DNA of 61,114 nt from Candidatus Peregrinibacteria bacterium (GCA_016220145.1 JACRID010000021.1:1-61114); one strand, 5' to 3'; counted from the stretch's first letter, positions 1 through 61,114 are shown. Notes: generated by a model not told the origin, from the sequence alone. Translations and numbers: made by a program.

Positions 1-139
1 TTTATTGGTAATTTTCGGATAATGACCTCTTGTGGACAAGTTTTGTTGCTCATACGATTGTGCAAAAATGATAGATAAAATTGTTAACGCACTTTATCCT
101 CATTTTAGCACAATTGTGCGAGTAACGCACTATGAATTC
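1..139. repeat. Left arm of a perfect 139-bp inverted repeat; partner is the last 139 bp of the window (60976-61114)
   Basis: Base-by-base comparison shows 1-139 equals the reverse complement of 60976-61114 with no mismatch. Identity breaks at 140 (a) versus 60975 (a). The arm contains the 12-bp palindrome GCACAATTGTGC (108-119) and ends in ATGAATTC (132-139). Confidence 0.95.
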
Positions 140-530
140 AAAAAAACAATACAGCGAAAACGCCGGTCCAGTCACCATAAAAATACGCGCAGAAGCCGCG
201 GACGATAAACTTCTGCGCGGTTTGCCACAATCATTCCGCGCATTTGTGGGGCACAAAGAAACTTGCTTCCATCTGCCCAAAGGCGCGGTGTGGCTTGCCG
301 AGTCCGCACAATGTCCTTACCAAATGGTGCGGATAAAACAAAACATCTACGCTACGCAATTCCATCCGGAGTTAGATGCCCGAGAATTTTGCGTGCGCGT
401 TGAAATATATAAAAACTATGGGTACTTTGACCCAAAAGACGCGGAAGGACTCAAAAAAAAGGCGCTGAAAGAAAAAATTACAACACCAATGAAAATACTA
501 AGGAGATTTACGGAGTTTTACGGTTCTTAA
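132..530 (+). pseudogene. 5'-truncated class I glutamine amidotransferase (GATase1) remnant, reading from the ATG carried by the terminal repeat
   Basis: The 132-aa ORF keeps the C-terminal His/Glu region (NIYATQFHPELD). It has no nucleophile-elbow G-x-C-x-G segment, and complete GATase1 domains are roughly 190-240 aa. Its first 8 nt lie inside the inverted repeat. Confidence 0.6.
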
Positions 531-4021: not shown

Positions 4022-4726
4022 TTATTTAATTAATTTCCCAAAAAATAAATCTGATAAAATGGCAAATCCGGCGCCGGCGCGCTGGCCGTATGAATGATAA
4101 TAAACGGTAACAGGCATCTCTTTAAAACGCAAATTATGTTTCTTGATTTCGGCGACGATGTTTGAATTATGCGCCATGCGGTCTTGTGTAATCCGTATCT
4201 TGAGCGCGGCATCGCGCGTAAACGCGCGCAATCCGTTGTGCGCGTCAGATAATTTGATGCCAGTAATATACCAATTTATCAAGCGTGCCACGGGCAAAAT
4301 GATTACACGCTTTGTCCATGGAATGCGCTTGCTCGCGTCGCTGTTATCGCCGTTATTTTGATCGGTTTTTACGCGCAGAAAACGCGAACCCAACACGATC
4401 GTTTCTTTTCCTTTTTCTAAAGGTTCAATAAACCCCGGTAATTCACGCGCAGAAAACTGACCGTCCGCGTCAAAATGAATAATACTATCCGCGCCATGAA
4501 GTAATGCCCACTCCGTGCCGGTGCGTAGCGCCGCGCCCTGGCCGCGGTTTACCACATGCCTCACTACGGCAACGCCGCTTGCGCGCGCGTGTTCATATGT
4601 CTTATCTGTTGACGCGTCATCAACCACGACAATATCCCACGCTGGGCTCACCGCGCGGATGTCTTGAATAACATGTCCAATATGATCCTCCTCATTAAAT
4701 GCAGGTATGACAACAATAGTCTTCAT
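4022..4726 (-). CDS. GT2-family glycosyltransferase (soluble, polyprenyl-phosphate sugar synthase-like)
   Basis: VVIPAFNEE, VVVDDASTD and FDADGQ (DXD) motifs. Confidence 0.75.
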   Translation of the reverse strand: MKTIVVIPAFNEEDHIGHVIQDIRAVSPAWDIVVVDDASTDKTYEHARASGVAVVRHVVNRGQGAALRTGTEWALLHGADSIIHFDADGQFSARELPGFIEPLEKGKETIVLGSRFLRVKTDQNNGDNSDASKRIPWTKRVIILPVARLINWYITGIKLSDAHNGLRAFTRDAALKIRITQDRMAHNSNIVAEIKKHNLRFKEMPVTVYYHSYGQRAGAGFAILSDLFFGKLIK

Positions 4727-4749
4727 AGGATGTTTATTGGTAGCACGCG

Positions 4750-5205
4750 CTATCGGTTAAATTTTTTTTTTGTAAACTTGCTTAAAAATAATTTTAAATT
4801 ATCCGATGCGTTCGGCCAAATGAAATCTCTTGCGCGTTTTCGCCATTGATCTCTTGTTGCTCGCGAAGTGTCCGGAAACATTGCTTGAAGCTCCGCGTCA
4901 TTTTTATGTTCAAAAATTGTGTTATATAATAGTTGTAATTTATTATAATATCTAGTCCTTTCATTGGCTGATAACAATGCAGAAAATTCTTCCTTGGCTA
5001 ATTTAAAATTTTGTTCATATTCTGCCTGTTCAGTCCGACTTTTTTCTTCACGAGCAATGCGCTCGCTTTGTCTTGCGAGAATACGTGGTTGGCTCTGCCT
5101 TGTTTTTTCTTGATCAGAAACAACATTCTTTATTACTGTAGAAATATATCGTTTCAAATCTTCCAATGATGAAAATTCCACTAGCGCACTTGCAACCTTT
5201 TTCAT
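4750..5205 (-). CDS. Hypothetical protein with a charged coiled-coil N-terminus and a sigma-70 region-4-like HTH C-terminus; paralog of 5260-5754
   Basis: LLYNTIFEHKNDAELQAMFPDTSRATRDQWRKRARDFI aligns by eye with the sigma70_r4 pattern (L-x-y-x-e-x-s-x-x-EIA-x-x-lg-x-s-x-x-tV-x-x-x-l-x-rAr-x-x-L). The gene lies in an AT-rich islet. Confidence 0.4.
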   Translation of the reverse strand: MKKVASALVEFSSLEDLKRYISTVIKNVVSDQEKTRQSQPRILARQSERIAREEKSRTEQAEYEQNFKLAKEEFSALLSANERTRYYNKLQLLYNTIFEHKNDAELQAMFPDTSRATRDQWRKRARDFIWPNASDNLKLFLSKFTKKKFNR

Positions 5206-5259
5206 AATTAGCGCGACATCTGCATCTGTAAAATTAATTCTAAACTGATTAAATGTAAG

Positions 5260-5754
5260 TTAAATAAGTTCAATTAATATGTTCTTCAACGACTCTGATG
5301 AAAGTTTTTCTTGTTTTTTTTGTAAATTAGGGCTAGATAGTAATTCATTCAACTCATCTGAAAGAGTAATCAATTGGTTGTTTGCTAACTCACGCAAAAT
5401 TCTAACAGCAACCTTCCTGTACCAGTGTACTTGTGAATCATTTAATTCAAAATCGTCTTGAATCTGTTTGTAATCAGGTTCAAAAAATAATCTACGATAT
5501 AATATATCAAATGTATCAATGATTTTGTGTTCACTCCAGCCGCGTTTACGCAAAATTGCTTTTACCACAGGAAACAGATTTTCATATTCTTCTTTACAAC
5601 GGTTTTTTTTATCCTCTTGTTCTTGAATCTTTGTGTTAACGATAGTCGCCCACTCTGTCAATTTATGTGTGACTGTGTCAATCTCAGCGCGAGGCTCAAA
5701 AGATGGATGTTCGCTCATATTTTTGTATGCAGTAGAAATGTTATTTAGGGACAA
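5260..5754 (-). CDS. Hypothetical protein with a sigma-70 region-4-like HTH C-terminus; paralog of 4750-5205
   Basis: ILYRRLFFEPDYKQIQDDFELNDSQVHWYRKVAVRILREL fits the region-4 HTH pattern. The track start at 5754 is TTG. The first ATG at 5718 gives 152 aa, matching the 151-aa paralog. Confidence 0.4.
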   Translation of the reverse strand: MSLNNISTAYKNMSEHPSFEPRAEIDTVTHKLTEWATIVNTKIQEQEDKKNRCKEEYENLFPVVKAILRKRGWSEHKIIDTFDILYRRLFFEPDYKQIQDDFELNDSQVHWYRKVAVRILRELANNQLITLSDELNELLSSPNLQKKQEKLSSESLKNILIELI

Positions 5755-5773: not shown

Positions 5774-6799
5774 TTAAATCCCCGCGCCAGCTAATTTGGC
5801 GCGCACCACATCAAAGTCTATGGTTTTTTTAATGCCTTGCTCCAAATCAATAAGCGGAATCCAACCAAGCAATTCTTTTGCGAGCATCAAATCAGGAATG
5901 CCGAGAGGAGAAATAAATGAAAGCGGCGGATTAAATACGATCTTTGATGAAGAGTTGGTGAGTCTGATAACCATCTGTGCTACATCGAACAATTTATATA
6001 GACGATCCGATCCAATATTGATAGGGCTTAACGGCCCGGGAGCTTCCATCATTTTAACGAGCGCGTCAACGGTATCATTGACATACACAAGCGCGCTGGA
6101 AAAATTTTCATCGCCGTAAATAACCAAATCTTTGTTTTGCAAAGCACTCACGATAAAGTCTGAAATCATTTGTCCGTCAAACAGTTTGAGGCGCGGACCA
6201 TAGGTGCGGAAAATGCGCGCGGTACGCACGTCCAAATTATATACTTGGCGATACGTCTCTACCATGGTTTCCGCAAACCGCTTGCCTTCATCGTAGCACC
6301 CGCGCGGACTCAAATGGTTAACCACGCCTTCTTCCGATTCTTTGATGCGTTCCCCTCCCTTGCGCGGACCGTATACCACCGAGCTTGAAGCAAATAAAAA
6401 TTTCGCGTGATTTTTGACCGCCAATTCCAAGACATTCCGCATGCCGCTACTGTTGGCGAGCAATGTTTCTATTTTAAACTGATCAAAATTCTTGGCCGAG
6501 GTGGGACACGCAAGCTGATAAATTTCTTGTATGCCCTGAAATTTTACCTTGAATTTTTCAAGTTCCGGCCACTGTTCCAAAGTAAATGGTTCGTTGACAT
6601 TATGGCGGATAAATTCAAAATTAGGATCATTGATAAGATGATCAATATTGGCGCTTTGGCTATTGGAAAAGTCATCTATACAAATAACCTTGAGCTTGTG
6701 CTTTTTGAGCAACTGCTCGCACAAATGCGACCCAATAAAGCCGGCTCCGCCGGTTACGAGAACATTTTTAGTGCCAAAAATAGGTGTTTTGAGTGCCAT
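5774..6799 (-). CDS. UDP-glucuronate decarboxylase (UDP-xylose synthase)-like extended SDR
   Basis: VLVTGGAGFIGSHL Rossmann motif and GCYDEGKRFAETM, which closely matches the UXS signature CYDEGKRVAE. Confidence 0.7.
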   Translation of the reverse strand: MALKTPIFGTKNVLVTGGAGFIGSHLCEQLLKKHKLKVICIDDFSNSQSANIDHLINDPNFEFIRHNVNEPFTLEQWPELEKFKVKFQGIQEIYQLACPTSAKNFDQFKIETLLANSSGMRNVLELAVKNHAKFLFASSSVVYGPRKGGERIKESEEGVVNHLSPRGCYDEGKRFAETMVETYRQVYNLDVRTARIFRTYGPRLKLFDGQMISDFIVSALQNKDLVIYGDENFSSALVYVNDTVDALVKMMEAPGPLSPINIGSDRLYKLFDVAQMVIRLTNSSSKIVFNPPLSFISPLGIPDLMLAKELLGWIPLIDLEQGIKKTIDFDVVRAKLAGAGI

Positions 6800-6841
6800 A
6801 ATAGCATTCTTAAAAGATTCTTATGTGTTATGGATAGAGTA

Positions 6842-7004
6842 TGGGTCTGTCGCCAAATGCCATTTTGACTGCAATTTCTGAATTTTGGCCATAATTGCTT
6901 CAACATTTTTCAGCTTAACCGCTGTTAAACCTCAAAATGTATTCAGCAATTCTGTCTCAAAATTCAGAAATTTCGTTACAAAAGCGCATTTGGCGACAGA
7001 CCCA
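6842..7004. repeat. 163-bp long imperfect palindrome (MITE-like or structured intergenic element)
   Basis: Outer 19-bp perfect arms TGGGTCTGTCGCCAAATGC (6842-6860) pair with 6986-7004. Inner 14-bp arms are 6873-6886 and 6959-6972. Further paired blocks are 6893-6899/6945-6951, 6903-6909/6934-6940 and 6915-6919/6924-6928. The apex is near 6921. Confidence 0.85.
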
Positions 7005-7014
7005 GTATATCAAA

Positions 7015-9111
7015 TTATGGTGCCACAAGCAAGGATGGAATACTACGGAAATCTTTTTGGGAGAGATGCGCGGTAATCGGATCCGCCGGCTCAAGATTTG
7101 CATTAAACCGCTGAAGACCCGGATGCGCGCCGGTTCGGGCAACGATAATCGCAAGATCGCCGTTACGGTCAACATCTCCCGCGGCAACGGCGAATTGTGA
7201 ATTTTTTTCATGAATAAGAGGAGCGGTACCGCGCAATACCCCGTCGGCGACAAAAAGACGCACGGTTGGACTGCCTGCCGCATTTAAAGGCACGGTAATT
7301 ACTTCCGCGCGTCCATCACCGTCAGTATCTACTGCTGTTATGTTTATACCGCCACGATAGGCCGGTGCGGCCGCAAAAAAACCTGCATTCAACGGTGTCC
7401 CTTCTCCATTAAACATGCGAATATGCGCGCTCCCGCCTTGGCGCACACCGGTAATGATATCCTTGCGCCCATCACCATCAATGTCCGCAAGCGCGATACT
7501 TAATCCCAAACGCGCCCCGGGCGCATATGCCAAAAATTTATTTTTCAAAACTCCGGATAATGAATATACGCGGACCTCCGGTTTGTAACGTTGCGCCGGA
7601 GCCACGACAATTTCATCCTCTCCGTCGCCGTCCGTATCCCCTACCGCAATTTGTATTCCGCCATTATAATTTTTTGGATACGCAAGAAAACCCTTGCTCT
7701 TGAGCGCGCCATTTTCATCAAATAAGCGCACTTGCGATGAAGTATTGGAAGTGCCGGTGATAATGAGGGGTTTGGCAGAAGATGTCTCGTACGCGCGCGC
7801 AAATGAGACGCCTATTTGCTTGCCGTAATTAAAAGTAAATTGTTTCTGCGCCACGCCGCCGCCATCCAATTGCGCGACAACCGGACTGCCAGCAGAGGCA
7901 AGCCACACTGACTGCGTTGTCACCATTGCGCGCACTCGCGCAACCGCCGCGCCCGCATTAAGCAGACCCGCGCCAAGCTCATTTGTATATAACGGATTGA
8001 CATCATCTATGGGATCCGAGGTGCTTGTTAAAATATCATAAATTTGTTTGGGGGTAAGATCCGGCTTGAGCGATTTCATAAGCGCAACCGTTGCCGTAAC
8101 CTGCGGCGCCGCAAGCGAAGTGCCGGAAAATGATCCGCCAAAAAGCGTATCAAAACCCGTTATCGCCGGATGCACGACAAGCGTGCTTGGAATGTGTACG
8201 CCCGGAGCGGAAATATCAATACATCGCGTACCATAACTGGAAAAACGCGCCTTTCGGTTGCTCTCGTCAACCGCGGCAACACCAATCACCCACCACGGTT
8301 CTCCTTGTGGGCCGTCAAGACACACCGGATAACGCGGCGACCAATCCAAATCGCCATCTATCATATTGCCGTTGCCCTCATTGCCGGCGGCGGCAACCAC
8401 GGTAATGCCAACTTCGTACGCGCGGCGGATCGCATTGATCAAATCCTGATTGAGTTTCTTGCCGATAAAACTCATATTAATGACATCCACATGATGGTCA
8501 ATAGCGTAATTAACCGCTTTGACGACTGTTGTTGGATCGCCGTTTCCGGTATCTCCCACGCCATTTAACGCGCGCAGAGGCATAATGCTCACCTGCCAAT
8601 TGATGCCTGTTCCCGCAGTGCCATTATTGCCAACCGCACCGATGATTCCCGCGACAACCGTGCCATGATGAAAACCAAGGTCATTTTTTGGCGCGTTAAA
8701 ATCCGGTCCTGGATTAGCTTTATTGTCAACAAAATCCCAGCCGTGAATATCGTCTATGAGCCCATTGCCGTCGTTGTCAATGCCATCAACTGTTTCCGCA
8801 GGATTGGTCCAGATATTTTCTTGCAAATCAGGATGAATTATTTCAACACCGCTATCTATGAGCGCCACCACCACGCGCTTGCTACCTTTGGTTATGTTCC
8901 ACGCCTCAAGGGCATTAATTTGCTGGAGGTAGGTTTGCTGGAAAAAATTAGGGTCATTGGGGATATCTGATGATGTCGCCGCGCGCGCAAGAGATGCTGG
9001 AAATCCAATGAACGCGCTGGACGCAAAAAATAGAGCTGTGATGAAAAAAAGTAAAACATGAAACATATGTTTGTTGAAATGCCGCATAAAATTCTGAGAA
9101 TTTTTGTGCAT
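7015..9111 (-). CDS. Secreted subtilisin-like S8 serine protease with C-terminal FG-GAP/VCBS-type repeats
   Basis: Catalytic motifs ALIDSGV (Asp), HHGTVVAG (His) and SGTSLAAP (Ser). There is an N-terminal hydrophobic signal or anchor. Four or more repeats follow: DTDGDGEDEIVV, DIDGDGRKDIITG, DTDGDGRAEVITV, DVDRNGDLAIIV. Confidence 0.85.
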   Translation of the reverse strand: MHKNSQNFMRHFNKHMFHVLLFFITALFFASSAFIGFPASLARAATSSDIPNDPNFFQQTYLQQINALEAWNITKGSKRVVVALIDSGVEIIHPDLQENIWTNPAETVDGIDNDGNGLIDDIHGWDFVDNKANPGPDFNAPKNDLGFHHGTVVAGIIGAVGNNGTAGTGINWQVSIMPLRALNGVGDTGNGDPTTVVKAVNYAIDHHVDVINMSFIGKKLNQDLINAIRRAYEVGITVVAAAGNEGNGNMIDGDLDWSPRYPVCLDGPQGEPWWVIGVAAVDESNRKARFSSYGTRCIDISAPGVHIPSTLVVHPAITGFDTLFGGSFSGTSLAAPQVTATVALMKSLKPDLTPKQIYDILTSTSDPIDDVNPLYTNELGAGLLNAGAAVARVRAMVTTQSVWLASAGSPVVAQLDGGGVAQKQFTFNYGKQIGVSFARAYETSSAKPLIITGTSNTSSQVRLFDENGALKSKGFLAYPKNYNGGIQIAVGDTDGDGEDEIVVAPAQRYKPEVRVYSLSGVLKNKFLAYAPGARLGLSIALADIDGDGRKDIITGVRQGGSAHIRMFNGEGTPLNAGFFAAAPAYRGGINITAVDTDGDGRAEVITVPLNAAGSPTVRLFVADGVLRGTAPLIHEKNSQFAVAAGDVDRNGDLAIIVARTGAHPGLQRFNANLEPADPITAHLSQKDFRSIPSLLVAP

Positions 9112-24386: not shown

Positions 24387-25550
24387 TTAATCTCGACTCC
24401 AAAATTTTTGATCCGGAAGTTCCTCACCTCTTTTCGTCTTATTAAAATCATGTTTCCACGGTTTTACTGCATGTCGACTAGCAATATCATTAAATTCTTT
24501 TTCTGATATGTTGAGCCAATAAAGAAATACATCCAAACTTGCTGGACGCAAACCCTCCCATTTTTCTAATAAATTCAAGGCTTCTTCGCGTTTCAAACGC
24601 CCATTTCTAATATCAATTGAAGCCAAATGACTCATACGACCATAGCCTCTTTTTATGAATTTTAAATAATCTTGGACACCTTGCATCATGTCTTCTATTT
24701 TTTCATAATTATACTCAGGCGGCACTCCTTCTACAAAATCACATTCCCAATCTAATTCACTTTTTATAATCTCAACTTGTTTTTTTACATCCCAAGACTC
24801 ATAACTACCAAGACAAATTGAACGACAATTTATTGCTTTAAGTTTATCCCGCGAAGGAAATGCGTGAAATTGTAAATCGTTCATGGTTATCATATTATCA
24901 TTGAGGAAACCAATCATATCTTCAGCAGTTATACCCAAATTAACAAACATATTAAAACGTCGTTCATCAACTTCTTCTGTTTCGTCATAACCGTAGTAAC
25001 TTGTGTATTCAGATGATGGTTCACCCCAGATGACCAAAGGAACATTAAACTTTACTGCTACATGCATCGGAAAAGCAAAAATACCAGAGTGTTGATACCA
25101 ATATATATCTCCTTTTCTTTCCAACGACACTCGCATTAATTTCTTGACGAGTTGCCAATTGGTGCTAAATTTAAAAAAATCAACCCCTAATCGTTTAATT
25201 GTACGTTCTGCATTGCGCAAAACTGTCGGACGATACATATGATGATCATAACTAACAACGAGCGGGCGTAATCCAAATTTTTTAACTAATGCCAAAACTG
25301 TAAAGGTACTATCTTCCCCTCCGCTAAATGGAATAATGCAATCATAAAAATATTTGCCACGATAATTTTCTAACAAATCAACAAACTCGCGTCCTTTATT
25401 TATCCAATTCAATTTCTCTTTAATTTCTAAATTACGACAAGTACTGCAAACCCCTGCTTCATCAAATACAATTGACTCCTGCGTTTCAGGCATGACACAC
25501 CTACTACAACGTCTTAATAATTTTGGGTCACTAATTATTTTTTCCGTCAT
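24387..25550 (-). CDS. N-acetyl-sugar amidotransferase (PP-loop ATP-pyrophosphatase, WbpG/PseA-like)
   Basis: N-terminal Cys cluster CSRCVMPET...GVCSTCRN and the PP-loop IPFSGGEDST. Confidence 0.75.
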   Translation of the reverse strand: MTEKIISDPKLLRRCSRCVMPETQESIVFDEAGVCSTCRNLEIKEKLNWINKGREFVDLLENYRGKYFYDCIIPFSGGEDSTFTVLALVKKFGLRPLVVSYDHHMYRPTVLRNAERTIKRLGVDFFKFSTNWQLVKKLMRVSLERKGDIYWYQHSGIFAFPMHVAVKFNVPLVIWGEPSSEYTSYYGYDETEEVDERRFNMFVNLGITAEDMIGFLNDNMITMNDLQFHAFPSRDKLKAINCRSICLGSYESWDVKKQVEIIKSELDWECDFVEGVPPEYNYEKIEDMMQGVQDYLKFIKRGYGRMSHLASIDIRNGRLKREEALNLLEKWEGLRPASLDVFLYWLNISEKEFNDIASRHAVKPWKHDFNKTKRGEELPDQKFWSRD

Positions 25551-26914: not shown

Positions 26915-27892
26915 TTAAGAAGCATGCAAAAGTACTTTTTTTAAGTCATCCAATATTTTAATTTTTTCAATTTTTGTAAATGGCAATCCGCATTGTTTCG
27001 ACTCATCGGGTAGATAGCTAATTGTACGTTTGCCACATAAATACGCTACAACAAGAGCCATGCTTTCCATTCCTATAACAACCCCGACAGCCGCAAGATC
27101 GATACATAAATCAGTTGCTTCAGATATCCTAATTTTAAACAACGAAGAATATTTTGCTATCACCAGATTATACTTATCTTTGGATTCAGATGGATGTAAG
27201 CGAATAATTATGAGAGGAGGTGCTTCATCTTTTTTTGACAACACGTACAACATGTCATCGAGGACATCAAATTCAGTAAACATCATTTTTCTCTTCATGC
27301 CCATGGCATTAATTGGTTCGTTCATAGGTTCCCCTAAAAATAAAACCGCTTCAGGATCTTCCTTGATCGTATCGGCGATGCTCGCATAGCGTGCCTTTGC
27401 ATCGTCAAATGAACGGTTTGGAACAAAACGAATTAAAATTTCTGGAAACTCCTTTTTCGCAATTGACTCAGCATATGAATCGCCAACCCAAATTTCATTT
27501 GGCAAACGTTTCTTCCATCCATCTTGTGGGTAGCCAAACCGTTCGCGATAATTTAACCAATGATCAAGGTATACTACTGTGGTGATTCCACGGCGTAAGG
27601 CCTCTTGGAGTGCAGAAATCTCAAATAACGATGACCATCCGATTCCAAATAAAATGAAAAATGGATCTTCTCCCCAATCAAAAATAATTTTTAAAGGTTC
27701 TTTGACATTTGTCATGTCTACAACAGGAATGCCATATCGAGCAAAAATAGCGACCGCTGGTCCGGCTACAAAACAACTAGAATTTAAACCTACGCATTCA
27801 TATTTTAAAAAAGCAGCTATAATTTCTGCACCACCAGCGTCATGACACACAACTATAATTTTCTTCTTTATACTCATATACAAGTAATCCAT
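26915..27892 (-). CDS. Hypothetical protein, possibly a GT-B-fold enzyme (PseG substitute or nonulosonate transferase not excluded)
   Basis: Rossmann-like N-terminus KKIIVVCHDAGGAEII and C-terminal VVIGMESMALVVAYLCGKRTISY. The G-x-GH motif of PseG is absent. Confidence 0.35.
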   Translation of the reverse strand: MDYLYMSIKKKIIVVCHDAGGAEIIAAFLKYECVGLNSSCFVAGPAVAIFARYGIPVVDMTNVKEPLKIIFDWGEDPFFILFGIGWSSLFEISALQEALRRGITTVVYLDHWLNYRERFGYPQDGWKKRLPNEIWVGDSYAESIAKKEFPEILIRFVPNRSFDDAKARYASIADTIKEDPEAVLFLGEPMNEPINAMGMKRKMMFTEFDVLDDMLYVLSKKDEAPPLIIIRLHPSESKDKYNLVIAKYSSLFKIRISEATDLCIDLAAVGVVIGMESMALVVAYLCGKRTISYLPDESKQCGLPFTKIEKIKILDDLKKVLLHAS

Positions 27893-29714: not shown

Positions 29715-30706
29715 ATATTATTTTTTTTAAGTAAATTATGACAAATGCGTTGCACTTTTAATGCGTCTTGCCCATCACAAACAAGGTGAGTAGTTTTTCT
29801 ATCCAAATAATATACCACATTACTCACTAACTCAAACATTGCATTACCGAGGAGTGTAGGGGTAAATTTTTCTTGGTCTAAAACCTTAAATTCCGGATAT
29901 AATTTATCTTTGGATATTTTTTGAGTTGTTATTGAAAATCCAAAATCTTTGATACGGAAACGAGCTTTTTCAAACAAAATATCTAGTTCAAAAATTCCGT
30001 ATTTTCGTTCATCGCCTCCCACCAAATAAAAATTTGAACATCGTTCGAAACTCATTACAGCACTCACAGTGGGGTCATCTTTCCGATAATCAACTAGACT
30101 CGATAATACCTGTGACCACATTACGTCACCAAAGAACCACCTAGATAAATCAATTAAATGTGAACCGTTATGAAGGATGCCCTTGGAGTAATAACCGACT
30201 GTAGCAATTACCTTTCCATATTTATTTGATCCGATTTCTTTTCTAAACTTTTGTAAAGTACGATCAAAGCGACGTGAGTAATTTACAAGAAGTGGAATTT
30301 TTAACGACTCAAATTGATTTATTATCTTCTCAGTATCGTCAAGTTTAGTCGTTAACGGTTTTTCGCAAATAACCAATTTTGGACGATATTTAACAAGCGA
30401 CTTAAGAACCGCGTAATGCGTATTATCCGGGGTGCACACGCTTACTATTTCAGGCTCAGTTTTTTTTAGCATGTCTTCTACTGTTTTGAAAGATTTGGTT
30501 GACCATTTTTTTGCAACTTTCGTCGCCTTACTCTTATCAATATCAAACAACCCAACTAAGGATGTGCAAGGATGCACCACAAAAGCATGAGCGTGCGTGA
30601 GAATATCTTTATGCTGTGGCGTGTCAAAACCGGCAGCTATTCTTCCAGCACCAATGATTGCAGCTCGATAAATTTTATCCTTGGAGTGCATCTTTTTGTT
30701 TGACAT
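29693..30706 (-). CDS. Gfo/Idh/MocA-family oxidoreductase
   Basis: AAIIGAGRIAAG Rossmann motif and ICEKPL motif. Confidence 0.7.
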   Translation of the reverse strand: MSNKKMHSKDKIYRAAIIGAGRIAAGFDTPQHKDILTHAHAFVVHPCTSLVGLFDIDKSKATKVAKKWSTKSFKTVEDMLKKTEPEIVSVCTPDNTHYAVLKSLVKYRPKLVICEKPLTTKLDDTEKIINQFESLKIPLLVNYSRRFDRTLQKFRKEIGSNKYGKVIATVGYYSKGILHNGSHLIDLSRWFFGDVMWSQVLSSLVDYRKDDPTVSAVMSFERCSNFYLVGGDERKYGIFELDILFEKARFRIKDFGFSITTQKISKDKLYPEFKVLDQEKFTPTLLGNAMFELVSNVVYYLDRKTTHLVCDGQDALKVQRICHNLLKKNNICRDLLS

Positions 30707-32924
30707 ACTGATTCAACTCTAACAGCTTAGGATTATTTTTTAATAATTGTATTACCTCCATAGCAGTAAAATCATTATTGATAGGTAAAAGTCGCTCAAA
30801 AATTTCATTGAGCAATAAATAATCTCCTTTTTCATCAAGTGTTACCCGGAGTTCCGGCCAATAATAATCGTCTTTCGCTGTCCAACTATGCAACCGATAC
30901 CGTTCTGGATGATTATAAATATAATATGAAACATGTACTCGATCCAAAGGGTCATTTGTCAATTTATCTACTTCAGCAAGCACTTGAACAGGAAACACTT
31001 GAACATCAAAGCCTATGGGATAGGAAACAGGAATTATATTAGCCGAATAATCAACATCATTGATAAAAAATTCTTTAATACCTTGGTCAACAAGGTCATG
31101 ATCAACAAGCGGACAATCACCCGTTACTTCAACAATGATATCAGCTTGTACTGAGCGTGCCGCGCCCAAAACACGCCCCAAAACGTCAGACTCACTGCCA
31201 CGGAAATAATTTATGCCCAATCGTTCCGCTAACGAGACGATTGGGTCATCTGCTTTGTTTACAGTAGTAGCTACGACAATGACATCAACATATTTACTGC
31301 GCTTGAGCCGTTCAATCAATCGTTCTAACGACGGCCTTCCTGCAAGAGGCATTAAAACTTTTCCAGGCAGACGAGAGGATGTCATTCTTGCTTCAATTGT
31401 TGCAACGATTTTCTTTTTCTTTCTGAACCATGGAATTTTGTTTGTAAACTTAGACCAACCAAGCTCATTGATTATGGAGCGGACAGTATGATATGGCCCG
31501 CTGGAAAATTTTTTGCCAATCAAAAAAAGTAAAACCAAATAAATCAGACCCAAAACAACTACCCAAATGAATATGACATAATTACTTAAAAATTTATGGA
31601 AAAAAAAGTGAGCTGGTAATGCTACTATGGAAGTGCCGAGCGACGCACCCAAAACGGATACTACCGAAGGATAAAACTTTTTCTTATCTAATTTTAAGAT
31701 CGATCGCGCGCGCACTATGGTTAAAATAAATAGTAATAAGGAAACGGCCAATGACGCGATTGCCGCGCCACGCAAATTTAAAAATTTAATTGCGAAATAA
31801 AAAATTGGCGGAGAAATTATAAGTTGAACCATTTTAATCTTAAAATTGATATCTGGCTTGCCAATCGCGTTAAAAATTGGACTCACTACTCCCATCAAAC
31901 CAACGAAAATATTCGTTGTTGAAAAAATCTTTAATGGAACTACTATTCCCATCCATTTACTGCCAAGAAGAACATGCACAATCGAACCTCCTTCAAAAAG
32001 AAGTAGAAGGCTAAACGGGATACTAACCAAAAGCATAATGTCCAGGCTTTTAAGAAAGCCCTCTTGGATCTTATCCAGTCTGTCTTGCACTTTAACATAA
32101 GCAGAAAAACCCACGCGATTCAGTAGACCACCGATAGGCGCGGTGATCGTGGACGGCAAATCTTTTGCCCGTGAATAAAATCCAAGTCCGGTCGGATCAA
32201 GTAGGCGACCGACAAAAATTTTATCAATTGAGACAGTAAAAAAATCTAGGATATTTTGACCATATACCCACTTTCCATAACCAAACAAGGATTTAAGAGA
32301 TGAAAAACGAGTTGAAATTCGGGGAAATACTGGATACAAAACATAGGTCGTTATAGCGGAAACAAAATAACTAGCCAAGTAGCCGATAAATAAAGCCCAT
32401 GCCGTTGGGCTCACAAATAAAGCCACCACTGTGGACACAACTGTATAAGCCAATTGACCGGAAACGTCGCGAAAAAAAATCTTTTTATATTCAAGCTCTT
32501 TAAAAAATTTCAGTTGATAAATATTTCCCAAAGAGGAAAGAATTGGCAAAAGGCCGCTTAATTTAATAATAAGAACTTGCGATGGTATTAACTTGAAAAA
32601 ACGCCCGATATAATTTCCCGCTAAAAATATTACGACAGCAGTTAATATTGATTTCAATAATTCAAACGTCCACACTGTATTTAAATGCTCATCAATATTT
32701 TCTTTTTTTTGCAATAAGGCTGCACCAAATCCGGGTGTCAAAAAACTGTCTAGAAAATTTGTGATTGTAAAAACTACTGTTATAACACCATAATCTTGCG
32801 GAAACAATAATCTGGCTAAAACAAAGAAAACCACCAGATTAATAAGTCTTTGACTGATGATGCTAATCATGAACCATTTCCCACTTTGGATTGATTTGTT
32901 ATAAACGCCAGCTTCTTTGGGCAT
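30675..32924 (-). CDS. Fusion: Wzx-type polysaccharide flippase (MOP superfamily) plus C-terminal SpsF-type cytidylyltransferase domain
   Basis: About 480 aa of repeated hydrophobic helices are followed by KKIVATIEARMTSSRLPGKVL...VTGDCPLVD. That C-terminal part is collinear with 13361-14131. It is one uninterrupted 749-aa ORF. Confidence 0.65.
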   Translation of the reverse strand: MPKEAGVYNKSIQSGKWFMISIISQRLINLVVFFVLARLLFPQDYGVITVVFTITNFLDSFLTPGFGAALLQKKENIDEHLNTVWTFELLKSILTAVVIFLAGNYIGRFFKLIPSQVLIIKLSGLLPILSSLGNIYQLKFFKELEYKKIFFRDVSGQLAYTVVSTVVALFVSPTAWALFIGYLASYFVSAITTYVLYPVFPRISTRFSSLKSLFGYGKWVYGQNILDFFTVSIDKIFVGRLLDPTGLGFYSRAKDLPSTITAPIGGLLNRVGFSAYVKVQDRLDKIQEGFLKSLDIMLLVSIPFSLLLLFEGGSIVHVLLGSKWMGIVVPLKIFSTTNIFVGLMGVVSPIFNAIGKPDINFKIKMVQLIISPPIFYFAIKFLNLRGAAIASLAVSLLLFILTIVRARSILKLDKKKFYPSVVSVLGASLGTSIVALPAHFFFHKFLSNYVIFIWVVVLGLIYLVLLFLIGKKFSSGPYHTVRSIINELGWSKFTNKIPWFRKKKKIVATIEARMTSSRLPGKVLMPLAGRPSLERLIERLKRSKYVDVIVVATTVNKADDPIVSLAERLGINYFRGSESDVLGRVLGAARSVQADIIVEVTGDCPLVDHDLVDQGIKEFFINDVDYSANIIPVSYPIGFDVQVFPVQVLAEVDKLTNDPLDRVHVSYYIYNHPERYRLHSWTAKDDYYWPELRVTLDEKGDYLLLNEIFERLLPINNDFTAMEVIQLLKNNPKLLELNQYVKQKDALQG

Positions 32925-39901: not shown

Positions 39902-41545
39902 CTACGATTTTTTAGCAATAATCCAAAGACTCTTAGAATTTTCTTTATCAATTTTTAAAACGATTAAGCCGGCTTGTTCAAACAACTGGCGCGCTTTCTC
40001 TGCCGAAAACGAAATGCCATGAAACCAACGCCAACGATAGGTCTCTGGTCCGGTGCGCAACTGCACTTTAACAACTCCTCCAATTTTTAAAACCCGCGCC
40101 GTTTCTCGCACATACGCTTCAATTACGGCTCGATTCGGCAAGTGACGAAACACGAGATAAGAAAAAATCAAATCAATTTGATTATCAGCTATAGGCAATT
40201 CTTTGCCGGCATTCTCAAATAAAACAATATTAGAAAGATGCAACAGCCGCCGTTTGGCAACCTCGATCATTACCGGTGAAATATCCACTCCATATACCGT
40301 ACCAAAACTCTTGGCTAAATATTCAGTCATCCGACCAACACCAGAACCAATTTCGAGTACTATTTTCGCTTTTAGATCACCCAACAACCCTAATAAGAAC
40401 GAATCTGAAAGTATATAATTTTCCACATCTTCCTTGCCCGTCTGTCGGACTTCAAACTCATCTACTTGCCTGCCGTTCTTAGTATCGGGATTCGCATAAT
40501 AGTACGCATTCTTTGTTGCCAAGTTGTCCCACTTTTTCTTAATATCCAACAGAGTCTTACTTGGCAAGACTCGTTCTGCCGCACGGCGCATCGGCTGTAA
40601 ATTATGGCGCAACCGCTGGATTACTTTATTCGTATTCAATTTGTTCCACCATAACGCCAGTGTTGCCCCCGACATCAAACGTCCGCCCTGATAATCCCAA
40701 AAAGAAAACCATTGCGGCAAAGTTTGATATTGCTTCACAATTTCCTCATGTCGAGCATTAGAAGCAAGCAACGCTTGAAGCAATGGCACAGATCCGTCTT
40801 TGTGTTTCAAAGCAGTATAAGCACGCAAATCTTTGGGTAAACAATGGCCTCCAAACCCTTGGCCATAACGCAGATAACTTTTGCGCTCTAATATAAAATC
40901 CAACACGCGTTCAATCTCTTGACGCCTAGTAGCAGTTATTGGCAACGCAATGCTGTCGCCAAATTCATTAATAAAGCCAACTCGTAAAGCATTCCAAATG
41001 TTGGAAAGATATTTTATGTGGGATGCTTCCTCCGGCGTGCCTTTAAATACTTTATGCGCACGAGTTTCCCATTCTTTAAGAAAACTCGGCAACTGCTGTT
41101 CTTCCTTTGCACCCAATACGTAATAATAAGGATTCAAACACTCTTCTACCGCTTTGATCTCATGAAGAAATTCAGGAAAATAATAATGAAAATGGAGATT
41201 AGATAAGTGGGGTGGCAAGACGGTGGAACGTAGAATAACTTTTCCTCGGGCTTCAGAAAGCATGCCCAGAGCTCGTTCAATTAAGGATATATCTTGTATG
41301 CCTTCCTCTGAAACGCGATCACCAATGCACACAATATACCATGTGGAGGAACTGTCTTTTTCCAAGGGCGTCTTCAATGGACACAAACGTTCGTAGAGTT
41401 CGAAATATTGAGCGGCATAATGCTGATGGGGCGTCAAAACATCGTAATAAAAAACCTCGTAGCCCATTCGTGCGAGCGCAAGCGCATTGGCTTGGCCAAC
41501 CCAGCCAAAACCGACAATGACAATTTTTTCAAAGCCATCATCCAT
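39902..41545 (-). CDS. Fusion: UDP-sugar dehydrogenase N-terminal and central domains plus C-terminal class I SAM methyltransferase domain
   Basis: IVIVGFGWVGQ NAD motif, GFGGHCLPKDLRAY catalytic-Cys motif, then VLEIGSGVGRMTEY...VYGVDISP methyltransferase motifs I/II. The usual UGDH C-terminal UDP-binding domain is absent. Confidence 0.6.
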   Translation of the reverse strand: MDDGFEKIVIVGFGWVGQANALALARMGYEVFYYDVLTPHQHYAAQYFELYERLCPLKTPLEKDSSSTWYIVCIGDRVSEEGIQDISLIERALGMLSEARGKVILRSTVLPPHLSNLHFHYYFPEFLHEIKAVEECLNPYYYVLGAKEEQQLPSFLKEWETRAHKVFKGTPEEASHIKYLSNIWNALRVGFINEFGDSIALPITATRRQEIERVLDFILERKSYLRYGQGFGGHCLPKDLRAYTALKHKDGSVPLLQALLASNARHEEIVKQYQTLPQWFSFWDYQGGRLMSGATLALWWNKLNTNKVIQRLRHNLQPMRRAAERVLPSKTLLDIKKKWDNLATKNAYYYANPDTKNGRQVDEFEVRQTGKEDVENYILSDSFLLGLLGDLKAKIVLEIGSGVGRMTEYLAKSFGTVYGVDISPVMIEVAKRRLLHLSNIVLFENAGKELPIADNQIDLIFSYLVFRHLPNRAVIEAYVRETARVLKIGGVVKVQLRTGPETYRWRWFHGISFSAEKARQLFEQAGLIVLKIDKENSKSLWIIAKKS

Positions 41546-41547
41546 AT

Positions 41548-43428
41548 TTAAAGAGTTAATGATTGACTACAGATTGGGTTATCCCAATCAATTCTATAAA
41601 GAAATATATTATGAGAATTAATTAATAAAGAAAGGCAAGGGATAACCGACACATCCCAGTTGGAATTTATATTTTTATCCCACACTATATAACCTATTCC
41701 TCCACGCCTAAGAATATCCACAAAACTTTTTATTGTAGAAGTATTTTTTTTATACTCCACCATTAATTGTGATACCACTTCCTTTTTCTTAGCTATCAGT
41801 GCAGGATCATGTTGAGCTAGCTGTTTGTCATATTCACTAAAATCTTTACTCCCCGAAAGAAATGACTCTAGGTTTTGGAATATTTCAAAACTTTGATCGG
41901 TTGTTGCATTTTGATGATAAATACTGAAGAGAGTTTTTCCACCATTCTCCTTTTTTTCTAAAAAGTCTATAGCATTGTCTCTTGCCAATCTGTTTAAATA
42001 AAGATATACAAATAGAGCATCTTTAAAGCGATCTATAGGGGTATAAAGGCTGGACGCCGAAGACCAATACATATCATAATTGGTATAAACGGTAAAAACA
42101 CTGCCAATATGTATATCCGAGGCCAAAATAGCTTTTGGCTGACTATCTTTTTTCAAAACATCAATGAGGGGTCCATAATTCTGTGCATATAACCTGACGT
42201 CCTTTGTATAAAGATATGCAACGTACTGCCGAAACACAGTATTGCCAAACACCATCAATAAAAGACTAAAAAAAAGTATCGATTTCAAAGAACGAGTCAG
42301 ATAACAATGGAAAATAAGCCAGAGCATAGAAAAATCGGTTACAATAACGAGCGGAATGATAAAATACCAAAAATAATGCAATGGCTGTATTGAACGACCG
42401 GTAAATACCTGCTGATTCATCACCAAAATACCAGTAATAAGTAGACAAAAAATAAAATAACGATTTTGGTTATTTTTCCTGACGATAAAAAAAATCATCC
42501 ACAACAAAAGAGAAAAAAGCAGAATCTTACTCCAAGGTGCAAAAGATCTGTCATATGTCAAACCACTAAAATAATTCACTTGTCTGACCAATTCAGGATG
42601 TGTTATTAAAAAAAATTGTATCAAAACAGGTAAACCGATAATTAAACCAACTGTGGCGATAAAAATTATTTTTTTCAATTTTGAAATATCTATTTTTATA
42701 ACATACATACACACAAGCACTACTAATAACGCCACAGCAAATGTCCATGCATAAGGATAGATATAAAATAATGTCCCCAACACAATACTGGAACATAATA
42801 CAGGCCATTTTTTAATCGAATCAAAACTTTTTAATAAAAAATAAAGAAAAATAAAGAAAAATAAAGAAGCGAAGTATGGCATTAAGGGGCGCGTATAGAT
42901 ATTGATTTGATCAGTATACGGAGAAACTCTTATCGGATACTGAATTACAAAAGTATAGCCGCCAATTACAAACAATCCTACCAAGGCAGCTAACCATTTG
43001 TTGCCTGCAAGACGCAAAGTAAAAAAATAAATCGCTACTATTAAAAAAAATATGCCAAAAAAATTCGCAATAGTATATACCTTAACAATATTAATATTTT
43101 GATAACCCAAAAGACGCAATGGCCATACTAAAAAATACTCCGCATAAATATGTTGAGGAGATGGCTCATCTTTCCCCACATTGAGCAAATAATTTCCCAA
43201 ACCATGACCTTCTAAAATTTCTTTACCCCTTGCCAAATAACCAATATCATCATCACCAAAAATTCCAATATTTATCCCTCGATAGTTTTGCCCCTCCAGT
43301 AATGGAAATAAAGCCACTGGTGCAACGACCAACCACGACAAAAAAAGTCCAACTATTAAAATAAAGTAGTGTTCACAAAAAAATGACCTAACCAAATTCT
43401 TTAAATGCACGACTCTAAACCATAACAT
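41548..43428 (-). CDS. Large polytopic membrane protein with a C-terminal soluble domain (YfhO/GT-C-like candidate); paralog of 48909-50690
   Basis: 626 aa with more than 10 hydrophobic helices. The first-loop segment NYRGINIGIFGDDDIGYLARGKEILEGH aligns with EYHGIHFFATPNEEVYLAIMQKISEGH of the paralog. Confidence 0.5.
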   Translation of the reverse strand: MLWFRVVHLKNLVRSFFCEHYFILIVGLFLSWLVVAPVALFPLLEGQNYRGINIGIFGDDDIGYLARGKEILEGHGLGNYLLNVGKDEPSPQHIYAEYFLVWPLRLLGYQNINIVKVYTIANFFGIFFLIVAIYFFTLRLAGNKWLAALVGLFVIGGYTFVIQYPIRVSPYTDQINIYTRPLMPYFASLFFFIFLYFLLKSFDSIKKWPVLCSSIVLGTLFYIYPYAWTFAVALLVVLVCMYVIKIDISKLKKIIFIATVGLIIGLPVLIQFFLITHPELVRQVNYFSGLTYDRSFAPWSKILLFSLLLWMIFFIVRKNNQNRYFIFCLLITGILVMNQQVFTGRSIQPLHYFWYFIIPLVIVTDFSMLWLIFHCYLTRSLKSILFFSLLLMVFGNTVFRQYVAYLYTKDVRLYAQNYGPLIDVLKKDSQPKAILASDIHIGSVFTVYTNYDMYWSSASSLYTPIDRFKDALFVYLYLNRLARDNAIDFLEKKENGGKTLFSIYHQNATTDQSFEIFQNLESFLSGSKDFSEYDKQLAQHDPALIAKKKEVVSQLMVEYKKNTSTIKSFVDILRRGGIGYIVWDKNINSNWDVSVIPCLSLLINSHNIFLYRIDWDNPICSQSLTL

Positions 43429-48908: not shown

Positions 48909-50690
48909 TTACTGAAACACAAAGATATCGATATTATGAGCCGAAAAAACTTTTTTAAGAGGAGGCAATGATTTTACCACAGATGACATAAGCGGCCCAT
49001 CAGATAACAGATAATCAACACGATATTTTTTTAATTCTTGATAAAAATCGTTTTTCAAAAAAATTTTATAATCATTAGGCAATCTAGCTAATAAGCTGTT
49101 CAATCGCACATCGTGATATCCTAAAGTATATTGTAATTGATAATAAAGATAACCTTCTGCTTCAGCATGATGTAATTTTAAATAATCCTCAATGCCTTCA
49201 ACTGTAACTCCGCGCAATCGTAACAAGACCATATAATTATGATAAAATCGTTCCGGAGGCGCTATAACTGATGTCCTCTCCCCAGAAATATATGTGTCAC
49301 AATGAGTAAAAGCAGGTATCAACTCATCCCAAAAACCATCACTATCTATGGAGAGGACTACACAATTCCCGAACATACTTTTATTTAAAAAATCAAAAAC
49401 TGGACTAAACTTTTGGAGAGAAGCAAAAAAATTGAAACGTGTTTTATATGCTGAAACTTGCGTGTAAATACCTAGTGAAAAAGCCGCTACAAACAAAAAG
49501 ATTACTATCACATACATCAATTGTTTTTTTGGCTTTACAAAATACCACAAAGTAAGTATGATGACCGTATACCCAAGCGGAATAGTAAAAAATACATAGT
49601 GATAATACCAGATTTCTCTTCCTGTTAAAATCTGTTGATTATACACAATAAAAGAACTCAAAAGTAAAGAAAAACAAAACCACCACCATTCCGGAAAACT
49701 TTTATATACTTTATTTCGCATATAATAAATTACTGACGAAAATGTAAAAAAAATTGAAACTGCAAATAAAAATTTATTTACGTGCGGCGTATGAGTCATG
49801 AATAGGCCGATTCGTGCAGATGCTTCAGCGTACCATGGAATATGAGATGCGCGCCACACCATAAACCAATAAGGTGATGAAAAAAATAAAGCTAAAATCA
49901 CAACTAGACCAAAATATTTAGCTAATTTAAAATCACGGCTAAAAAGCGCACGCAAACCAAGGATACCAATTATAGTGAGGGCAATACTCCAACTAAAAAA
50001 ATAACTAGCCATCATAAACGCTAGAGTTACAGCGGCTATAAGTATATTAATCTTTTTTCTCTTTGTAATAAGCATCCAGAGGCTCAAAAGAAAAACATAG
50101 AGTAAAATAATACCAGAAATCGGATTGACAGGACGTGTCCAAATCAAAAATCCAGTAATGGAAAATTTTCCTGTCAAAATTTTCCAAATGCTATGGTAAT
50201 CAACAAGATCAAAACCTAGGGTCACGAGAGTACCTGTGGTTACGGCTACCAACTTGCTTAATCTAGTATTTTTTGTGTCAAATACAAGTAATTGATGAGT
50301 AAATAAATAAACCAAAAAAAATAATATCGCCGGCAAAAAAAATTTGCTGACGATCAATGTATTTACAAGTGATATATGCAATAATCTACTGACAAAAACA
50401 TACAGTAATGGTATGGTAGGCGGCAAAAGCGGTAAGTTATTTTTGTACTCATAAAAAGGAAAAGAAGCGGCCAAAAGATGTCCCTCGGAAATTTTTTGCA
50501 TGATAGCAAGATAAACTTCTTCATTCGGTGTAGCAAAAAAATGTATGCCGTGATATTCAGAACCAAGAGAAAAAATAAAAAAAATTTGTGGTAACACACA
50601 AATAAGACCGACTAAAAAAGATCCTGCAATGCCCCACATATGGTCCCGACATTTTTGTAATAACCAAACGTGCAGACGATGTATAGTCAT
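48909..50690 (-). CDS. Large polytopic membrane protein (YfhO/GT-C-like candidate); paralog of 41548-43428
   Basis: More than 10 hydrophobic helices and a C-terminal soluble domain. The track start at 50753 is TTG. The ATG at 50690 forms an ATGA overlap with the upstream methyltransferase stop. Confidence 0.5.
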   Translation of the reverse strand: MTIHRLHVWLLQKCRDHMWGIAGSFLVGLICVLPQIFFIFSLGSEYHGIHFFATPNEEVYLAIMQKISEGHLLAASFPFYEYKNNLPLLPPTIPLLYVFVSRLLHISLVNTLIVSKFFLPAILFFLVYLFTHQLLVFDTKNTRLSKLVAVTTGTLVTLGFDLVDYHSIWKILTGKFSITGFLIWTRPVNPISGIILLYVFLLSLWMLITKRKKINILIAAVTLAFMMASYFFSWSIALTIIGILGLRALFSRDFKLAKYFGLVVILALFFSSPYWFMVWRASHIPWYAEASARIGLFMTHTPHVNKFLFAVSIFFTFSSVIYYMRNKVYKSFPEWWWFCFSLLLSSFIVYNQQILTGREIWYYHYVFFTIPLGYTVIILTLWYFVKPKKQLMYVIVIFLFVAAFSLGIYTQVSAYKTRFNFFASLQKFSPVFDFLNKSMFGNCVVLSIDSDGFWDELIPAFTHCDTYISGERTSVIAPPERFYHNYMVLLRLRGVTVEGIEDYLKLHHAEAEGYLYYQLQYTLGYHDVRLNSLLARLPNDYKIFLKNDFYQELKKYRVDYLLSDGPLMSSVVKSLPPLKKVFSAHNIDIFVFQ

Positions 50691-51358
50691 CTTTTTTCTA
50701 AAAGTAAATGAAAGGTATTGAAATAAAATGGTCTTAACAACCAATAAAAACAAAGTATAAAACTCCTAACTCCCCCATATCTTCGTTTAATTTTCTCTTC
50801 TCTGATATCTTTCACTATAAATCCAATATTCTTCAAATCTTTTGCAATTGCACGATATGTAAAGTAATGCATTGTTACTAATTTTTGATGTCCCACGCCA
50901 TTGTCTGACTTTTGTTTACCCAATATTTTTAAAATTTTTTCCGTCCAACATCGGGGTATACAATTAATACCAAAAAGATGATAGTGGTAATCATATATGC
51001 CGAAACGATTATGAAAACTGATATAACACTTCCTATTATTCTTCAAGACACGAAAAATCTCCCTACAAACCTGAAACGGATTTTCCACATGTTCGGTGAC
51101 TTCAGAACAATTAATAAAATCCAATTGATTATCGAGAAATGGCAATTTCTCTCCTCTACCCTGAACTACTTTAATTAATACGCCTTCAGATTTAGCACGA
51201 TTTTCTGATTCCGTTATATAGGCCGAGTTTATTTCCACACCGTATGCCTTAAACCCTAAACTTGCCATTACACTTAAAAATTTTCCCCGACCGGATCCAA
51301 CATCTAAAACTATACCACCTTCTGGTATGAACTGTTTACAATAATCGGCGTGTATCAT
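50687..51358 (-). CDS. Class I SAM-dependent methyltransferase
   Basis: VLDVGSGRGKF (motif I) and AYGVEIN (motif II). Confidence 0.75.
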   Translation of the reverse strand: MIHADYCKQFIPEGGIVLDVGSGRGKFLSVMASLGFKAYGVEINSAYITESENRAKSEGVLIKVVQGRGEKLPFLDNQLDFINCSEVTEHVENPFQVCREIFRVLKNNRKCYISFHNRFGIYDYHYHLFGINCIPRCWTEKILKILGKQKSDNGVGHQKLVTMHYFTYRAIAKDLKNIGFIVKDIREEKIKRRYGGVRSFILCFYWLLRPFYFNTFHLLLEKR

Positions 51359-58598: not shown

Positions 58599-58601
58599 AG
58601 A

Positions 58602-59525: not shown

Positions 59526-59624
59526 AGGTTCAATTACTCTGGGTGTAAACAAAATTCAAAATTGGTTCACTTGGTTGAAATGAGCTTAAAATCTCATTTC
59601 TTCATCATTGCCAATTATAAGCGA

Positions 59625-59653
59625 ATTTTAGATAAAAAATTGCTCACTGTCAA
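59625..59653 (-). promoter_or_regulatory. Candidate sigma-70-type promoter for the GT2-heptose operon
   Basis: On the minus strand: TTGACA (59648-59653), a 17-nt spacer, then TAAAAT (59625-59630). The roughly 95-nt leader contains an 8-bp hairpin (59577-59584/59593-59600). Confidence 0.5.
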
Positions 59654-59669
59654 GCACGCGTTATCCGCA

Positions 59670-60983: not shown

Positions 60984-61114
60984 AGTGCGTTACTCGCACA
61001 ATTGTGCTAAAATGAGGATAAAGTGCGTTAACAATTTTATCTATCATTTTTGCACAATCGTATGAGCAACAAAACTTGTCCACAAGAGGTCATTATCCGA
61101 AAATTACCAATAAA
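60976..61114. repeat. Right arm of the perfect 139-bp inverted repeat (partner 1-139)
   Basis: It is the exact reverse complement of 1-139. It supplies the leader and the first ATG (60981-60983) of the dehydrogenase-family gene. Confidence 0.95.

Follow-up and report, generated by a model that had tools for sequence, protein, structure and literature searches.

The perfect inverted repeat that brackets this stretch of DNA (here called the window, 61,114 nt) is best explained by a contig that ends inside two inverted copies of a multi-copy insertion sequence (IS), with the 139 nt repeat being the ~k-1 bases that the assembler left on each side; we put the probability of this reading at about 0.92. 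The window would be a whole short-read contig, ending within two oppositely oriented copies of a 968 bp IS5-family element. The assembler would have been blocked by the multi-copy IS, leaving ~k-1 bases per end (139 nt at a MEGAHIT k of 141), and with both copies turning the same end (IRL, the transposase 5′ end) toward the 60.8 kb segment between them the two stubs would make a perfect inverted repeat. Each arm would hold a terminal inverted repeat, a probable transposase promoter, a leader hairpin and the first 17 transposase codons on the outward strand, and the ATGAATTC that reads inward would be there by accident, as part of the IS tip. On the left, the IS would have inserted in a class-I glutamine amidotransferase (GATase) gene to leave a dead 3′ fragment; on the right, it would have landed at the ATG with which the first gene of a glycan operon begins, cutting off its native upstream signals.

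The inverted repeat and an IS5-family insertion sequence

Positions 1–139 are the exact reverse complement of positions 60976–61114, with the arm length of 139 nt established by script, and there are no N characters in the 61,114 nt window. A repeat search stretched the match to 153 nt at 97% identity, and the extra 14 nt are a chance likeness of the A-rich flanks; a perfect match of 139 nt cannot be due to chance. Both arms terminate in ATGAATTC, M-N-S is the start of both end open reading frames (132–530, plus strand, and 59670–60983, minus strand), and GCACAATTGTGC is present at 108–119 and 60996–61007, 12 nt ahead of the ATG. The preliminary description had reported an exact 139 bp inverted repeat with these ends and starts and a palindrome in each arm, and all of these observations hold.

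The source of the arms is apparent from other contigs. An exact 34-mer from the arm is found in four contigs in two groundwater CPR MAGs (BioProject PRJNA640378). One of these, contig 56 of JACROX01 (JACROX010000056.1; here L001), has a complete copy of 968 bp at 4461–5428, in which the arm is internal (5290–5428, 100% identity) and the sequence runs on outward past it. The arm belongs to an IS5-family insertion sequence cut by the contig end, of which it is the IRL, at the 5′ end of the transposase gene. The bodies of the two IS copies are outside of the window, to the left for the left arm and to the right for the right arm, and the two arms are the only IS matches within it. The features of the arms and of the adjoining sequence are as follows.

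1–139, minus strand: left arm, the outermost 139 nt (IRL) of the 968 bp IS; 100% identical to L001 5290–5428.
60976–61114, plus strand: right arm, IRL of a second, inverted IS copy; reverse complement of 1–139.
117–139, minus strand (right arm 60976–60998): terminal inverted repeat IRL, GAATTCATAGTGCGTTACTCGCA from the tip; ~17 of 23 positions match the other end.
1–53, minus strand (right arm 61062–61114, plus strand): first 17 codons of transposase ORF A, MSNKTCPQEVIIRKLPI; reads out of the window.
102–110, minus strand: extended -10-like motif TGCTAAAAT (TGnTAAAAT); overlaps the palindrome at 108–119 and is conserved in the nearest related IS (L048).
50–135, minus strand: long imperfect hairpin, predicted, in the transposase leader; DNA fold z = -5.35.
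140–142, plus strand: AAA, presumed half of the 3 bp target duplication of the left IS, by likeness to the ATT/ATT of L001.
60973–60975, minus strand: TAT, presumed triplet of the right copy, by likeness to the ATT/ATT of L001.
140–530, plus strand: GATase 3′ fragment (class-I glutamine amidotransferase); Pfam GATase positions 105–177 of 190 only.
59670–60974, minus strand: UDP-glucose/GDP-mannose dehydrogenase, intact; real start MKKYT at 60974.

The L001 element has two open reading frames on the strand that leads away from the tip. The ATG of ORF A is 87 nt from the tip (window 53–51, minus strand; right arm 61062–61064, plus strand), and its product matches DUF4096, a Pfam 'putative transposase of IS4/5 family' (7.7e-13). 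ORF B matches the Pfam domains DDE_Tnp_1_2 (2.3e-10) and DDE_Tnp_1 (5.6e-07), and is in the -1 frame after GCTAAAAAAGGGGGG, an A6G6 run at the overlap of the two reading frames. With 120 bits, the fused ORF AB product passes the 110-bit cut-off of NCBIfam NF033580 ('IS5 family transposase'), aligning across the frameshift with positions 13–256 of the 258-position profile, and it is colinear over 93–98% of its length with hundreds of single-ORF transposases of ~290 aa, at ~47% identity. Synthesis of the full-length transposase may involve -1 frameshifting at the A6G6 run, although relatives have a single ~290 aa reading frame and the frame break at this run could instead be inactivating. The other end of the IS, GAACTCATAGCGAGTTTCCCCCA (L001 4461–4483), is alike with the IRL at ~17 of 23 positions, such that the terminal repeat is an imperfect one.

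Tests for features of the IS5 family thus found transposase domains, terminal inverted repeats, a target duplication and multiple copies, and an element of this size, with a 3 bp duplication and two reading frames, would suit one of the small IS5 subgroups. Only one public contig has this exact transposase, whose nearest relative is 78% identical; judging from these searches, the IS is a previously uncatalogued member of the well-known IS5 family.

Arm length, assembly and copy number

De Bruijn-graph assemblers leave ~k-1 bases of a shared repeat on contig ends, and the default final k of MEGAHIT is 141. The IS is on seven MEGAHIT contig ends, and on all seven its length is 139 or 140 nt, with the IRL stubs being 139 nt (k-2) and the IRR stubs 140 nt (k-1). 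The MAGs derive from shotgun metagenomics in which each filter was assembled with MEGAHIT 1.2.9 with default parameters and then scaffolded (PMC7906910). The 'scaffold_141_' contig names fit a MEGAHIT final k of 141, and a k-max of 141 is a setting commonly stated for MEGAHIT in the literature.

The same locus was recovered, with 99.8–99.99% identity, in an independent Logan assembly of run SRR12113407, for which we take k to be 31. Its contigs end 28 nt (L009, at window position 112) and 30 nt (L047, at window position 61005) into the arm. An arm of 139–140 nt at k = 141 and of 28–30 nt at k = 31 follows k and corresponds to no biological boundary. The preliminary description had listed a contig-end effect among three possible readings, and this is the one borne out, as the arm comes from the tip of a multi-copy IS and k determines how long it is. 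Both IS/flank junctions are supported by reads in the two assemblies, which speaks against a fold-back or a chimera at either end; the fold-back variant offered together with the contig-end reading is not supported, given this recurrence and the difference between the two flanks. A contig search with the dehydrogenase, using either start, gave no contig, and the right end was found via the neighbouring gene.

The two assemblies also differ in places. L047 has 10 differences from the window in the 5.4 kb near the right end (55602–61005); three other Logan segments have 0–2 mismatches per 7–21 kb, and there are nine in the 21.5 kb L008, the final 3.3 kb of which overlaps the 55602–61005 stretch. 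This suggests strain-level variation that is concentrated toward the IS-proximal end of the operon.

The multiplicity of the element is directly seen in the second MAG (JACRFU01, Candidatus Magasanikbacteria). Three of its contigs (L002, L003, and L004) start at the first base of the window ('tttattggta') and have exactly 139 nt of the arm, with unrelated DNA straight after GAATTC. Three more JACRFU01 contigs (L005–L007) open with the IRR end, with 140 nt of IS each. Distinct junctions with unrelated flanks number six for IRL and four for IRR, and the six IRL junctions all part ways directly after GAATTC. At least three to five additional copies are scattered over unrelated sites. Searches with the arm as an exact pattern gave no match in viral contigs or in JGI metagenome contigs.

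The complete copy in L001 has ATT on both sides, a 3 bp duplication, and two further triplets pair across contig ends, AGC between L005 and L004, and AAG between L007 and L003; these three matches compare with ~0.4 expected by chance among the 24 possible pairs. Outer partners for the AAA and TAT of the window, expected as the GATase 5′ half leading into AAA and the IRR end and as native dehydrogenase upstream DNA leading into the IRR end, were found in none of the genome, viral and metagenome collections, and none of the JACRFU01 and JACROX01 contigs returned has AAA or TAT ahead of the IRR end. With stubs that are 100% identical and target duplications that are intact, the IS has apparently been active recently. 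Only 139 nt of each flanking copy lies inside the window, and we infer that the copies at both ends are full-length 968 bp elements, not solo ends or fragments; the true genomic inverted repeat is then probably the full 968 bp per side.

Contigs from one site (Pr3) that were binned to two CPR phyla, Candidatus Peregrinibacteria (L001) and Candidatus Magasanikbacteria (JACRFU01), share the 139 nt IS end with 100% identity, and this reflects either mis-binning of a low-coverage 5.5 kb contig or very recent transfer. In L001 the IS is beside genes for a BsuBI/PstI-type restriction enzyme, an Eco57I/N6-type methylase and a LexA-like repressor. In L002 an apparent DNA methyltransferase gene (2784–2500, minus strand; FDPPYG motif) adjoins the IS tip near the 5′ end of the gene. 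Several genes of this small genome thus have a start that the IS has interrupted or displaced.

Content of the arms and the genes at the two ends

The nearest related IS is in a Patescibacteria MAG (L048), with a transposase that is 78% identical and ~78% nucleotide identity, and it ends at the same aligned columns at both IS ends. Its tip, TAACTAGTAT, has neither the ATG nor the EcoRI site; a looser CACA-N-TGTG symmetry is kept in the non-coding end. On the transposase strand, TGTGCTAAAAT is the longest block in the non-coding IS end that is fully conserved between the two elements. The -10-like motif is likely to be the transposase promoter, judging from sequence and conservation. A sigma-70 consensus scan of positions 1–400 identified no promoter on either strand, and the scan is uninformative for this organism, as it missed the transposase's own promoter too.

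The core of the leader hairpin pairs 57–63 with 108–114, and its outer pairs span the transposase AUG. RNA that begins at the IS tip has a predicted fold of -30.8 kcal/mol (z = -4.85) with the AUG region paired, whereas RNA begun downstream of the -10-like motif, from which the transcription start used in the folds was deduced, has -5.5 kcal/mol (z = +0.43) and is predicted to be unstructured. The hairpin may therefore mask the transposase start codon in read-through transcripts only. Scans of the window with Rfam and for tRNAs gave no matches.

At the left end, the reading frame at 132–530 aligns with residues 114–243 of a 246 aa Moraniibacteriota homologue with 57% identity. GATase homologues are 246–278 aa and have a conserved G-x-C-Y-G-F-G block upstream of the break; the window reading frame lacks the N-terminal 113 residues including this block, and the last ~130 of ~246 codons remain. 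The M-N and part of the S codon are supplied by the IS tip. The left reading frame is a 3′ fragment of a GATase gene that was split by the IS.

The right end is different in kind. Position 2 of the Pfam UDPG_MGDP_dh_N profile corresponds to residue 8 of the 437 aa reading frame (59670–60983), and the MKKYT start is its fourth codon. The IS tip is 1 nt upstream of this ATG, with the junction GAATTC|TATGAAAAAA (GAATTC|T ATG), which is also present in Logan L047. The dehydrogenase is the first gene of a long minus-strand array of glycan genes, and because the presumed TAT duplication overlaps its start codon the insertion parts the gene from its native upstream region. The M-N-S starts are annotation artefacts from the IS tip. 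What fails in the preliminary description is the arm as a provider of leader and ATG to both end genes. The ATG is an incidental triplet of the IS tip; of the two reading frames, the left is a truncated fragment and the right starts at an ATG of its own, three codons further in.

The glycan locus, alternative readings and related systems

Domain annotation identifies the window as a large locus for sugar-nucleotide and surface-glycan synthesis. The biosynthesis genes include NeuB, several DegT-type aminotransferases, Polysacc_synt_2 and other epimerases/dehydratases, CTP_transf_3 cytidylyltransferases, GFO_IDH_MocA oxidoreductases, formyl-, acetyl-, and methyltransferases, and one radical SAM enzyme. 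Assembly functions are represented by GT2 and GT4 glycosyltransferases, a Bac_transf initiating transferase and a Wzx-type flippase, and there are also genes for a subtilase with FG-GAP repeats and a DedA-type (VTT domain) protein. Two proteins have unusual fusions: a 749 aa protein (30675–32924, minus strand) combines a Wzx-type flippase (Polysacc_synt) with a CTP_transf_3 cytidylyltransferase, and a 547 aa protein (39902–41545, minus strand) has a match to the central domain of UDPG_MGDP_dh together with SAM methyltransferase domains. Five large reading frames (41548–43428, 48909–50753, 24387–25550, 26915–27892, and 1196–2443) have no Pfam match.

The GC content is 0.44–0.47 in the first 14 kb (0.40 in the 4–6 kb bin) and 0.33–0.44, mostly below 0.41, over 14000–61114, with a strongly negative GC skew. 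The glycan locus looks like a compositionally distinct island whose boundary is at ~14 kb, away from the IS copies. The sequence GAATTC is scarce in the window, with 11 sites where 27.2 ± 5.5 are expected from dinucleotide-preserving shuffles; all 100 of 100 shuffles had at least 11 sites, and the IS tips account for two of the 11. The scarcity may reflect restriction-site avoidance.

There is also a second dispersed repeat of ~165 bp that is unrelated to the IS. In the window it is at 6841–7011, between the reading frames at 5774–6799 and 7015–9111, and other copies are in L006 (199–367 and 2052–2193) and L007 (2387–2538, 4038–4201, and 7206–7355). It has 18 nt terminal inverted repeats, GGGTCTGTCGCCAAATGC ... 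GCATTTGGCGACAGACCC, with the variant AGACTTGTCCCCAAATA at both ends in two copies, and apparent 5 bp duplicated flanks (AGTAT in the window, AAAAT in the first L007 copy). The copies are 79–85% identical, the k = 31 Logan contig L009 breaks ~31 nt inside the repeat, and there is no match to it in Rfam. By its sequence organization the repeat is MITE-like. Together with the IS and the sample, this shared repeat family underlies a tentative assignment of the window to the Magasanikbacteria MAG (JACRFU01).

Two inverted IS copies very likely flank the 60.8 kb glycan locus, and such a pair could in principle allow inversion of the segment by homologous recombination or its composite transposition. 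The preliminary description had suggested that a genuine inverted repeat could flip the locus, and in this weak sense the suggestion survives. That the pair makes a functional IS-bounded unit, with the locus either invertible or part of a composite transposon of Tn5/Tn10 architecture, extends the preferred explanation and strikes us as unlikely. It would account for the same IS end being at both window ends, inverted and with junctions that are real in two assemblies, and would suit the seemingly recent activity of the IS (identical stubs, intact duplications) and the change in GC from ~0.45 to 0.33–0.40 across most of the locus, as in acquired glycan islands. However, the left IS splits a housekeeping-type GATase gene, the 3′ half of which is inside the segment, and this has the look of an independent simple insertion. 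The GC shift at ~14 kb is also away from the IS boundaries, and with at least three to five other scattered copies, flanking by two of them needs no special cause. Inversion keeps every junction k-mer identical and is therefore invisible to short-read assemblies. Quite unlikely are the specific forms in which a composite transposon of ~62.7 kb moves a nonulosonic-acid/surface-glycan island between CPR genomes, or the pair serves as a glycan on/off device. If the on/off form were true, with the IS at the first start codon of the operon, recombination between the inverted copies would change glycan expression in an episymbiotic bacterium with surface-mediated host attachment. A regulatory flip switch built on the 139 bp repeat as shared promoter, leader and start codon, with a promoter outside, is the part of the earlier suggestion that falls, and we regard it as very improbable. 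The arms are identical and there is an in-frame ATG ahead of both end reading frames, but the genomic repeat exceeds 139 nt, running on in L001 into the transposase, and the arm sequence abuts at least four unrelated loci. Moreover, one of the end genes is a fragment without the catalytic region and the other has an ATG of its own, the tip ATG is missing from the related IS in L048, and no sigma-70-like promoter was seen on the inward strand in the scan of 1–400. The supposed leader is the likely promoter and 5′ region of a transposase on the opposite strand, the ATG and EcoRI tip are unconserved, and the called genes of the window include no recombinase, integrase or invertase, such as an invertase-type switch has in or next to its segment.

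Readings in which the repeat is not an IS at all fare less well than the two-copy explanation. There is a very small chance that the contig is a fold-back or chimera of the assembly, or that its arms are vector or adaptor sequence joined at EcoRI sites. Both arms do stop exactly at an EcoRI site, GAATTC, but both junctions recur in the independent assembly from the raw run. A cloning-vector or EcoRI-linker origin was tried and rejected: there is no match in plasmid or phage collections, the DNA was sequenced by shotgun metagenomics, not from clone libraries (PMC7906910), the tip forms an imperfect inverted repeat with GAACTC of the opposite IS end, and it is flanked by 3 bp target duplications elsewhere. 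Least credible of all is that the arms are inverted terminal repeats of a linear plasmid or virus, protein-primed or hairpin-ended, which was the third of the earlier readings. Such genomes are called complete when an inverted terminal repeat frames a whole contig, but L001 refutes the reading: past the arm, its sequence runs through the transposase gene to ordinary chromosomal DNA. The arm is also present on many contigs. The window has no polymerase, replication, terminal-protein, resolvase, capsid/virion or other mobility genes, and there is no match in viral contigs. A linear replicon has its repeat at physical ends together with a gene for a protein-primed polymerase, terminal protein or telomere resolvase, and neither was found here.

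The main value of the explanation by two IS copies at the contig ends lies in its practical cautions. A perfect inverted repeat can make a contig look like a complete genome, linear or viral, or like a designed inversion switch, and the start codons of genes that touch contig-end repeats are untrustworthy. On the biological side, an uncatalogued IS5-family element and a MITE-like repeat unrelated to it are placed on record for a small CPR genome, in which one IS copy destroyed a GATase gene and a second one came between a large surface-glycan operon and its native upstream DNA. Such events are ordinary for an IS and of only mild interest with regard to the plasticity of CPR genomes.

The window is like repeat-induced de Bruijn contig breaks throughout, with 139–140 nt at k = 141 and 28–30 nt at k = 31; its twist is that the same IS end is at both contig ends in opposite orientation, mimicking an inverted terminal repeat. 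Small IS5-family elements of 860–990 bp have been described in which two reading frames are joined via -1 frameshifting, in one case at AAAAAAG, and ISCaa2, ISCaa3, and ISCaa9 of Amoebophilus asiaticus are 881–916 bp with two or three reading frames and a -1 frameshift (PMC3196728). The element described here resembles the small two-ORF IS5 types (IS427/IS1031/ISL2) in its length of 968 bp, ~20 nt imperfect terminal repeats, the DUF4096 and DDE_Tnp_1 domains, ORF B in the -1 frame after A6G6, the 3 bp duplication and the several identical copies per genome. It differs from described small IS5 elements in that its host is a CPR (Patescibacteria) bacterium and its nearest relative is only 78% identical. 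In IS10 and IS50 a leader hairpin hides the transposase start in externally initiated transcripts. The predicted hairpin here is similar in that it needs the outermost ~45 nt of the IS to be transcribed and pairs around the transposase AUG, but unlike those of IS10 and IS50 it is purely predicted, with one relative for comparison. Tn10 and Tn5 are composite transposons with inverted flanking copies of IS10 and IS50, respectively, and the Haemophilus influenzae cap locus is flanked by IS1016 in direct repeats. As in all three of these, two copies of one IS bracket a cargo, which here is a surface-glycan locus. The 60.8 kb cargo is far larger than those of classical composite transposons, and unlike in those transposons the left IS is inside a split gene, as in an independent insertion; relative to the H. 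influenzae cap locus, the IS copies are inverted here and direct repeats there.
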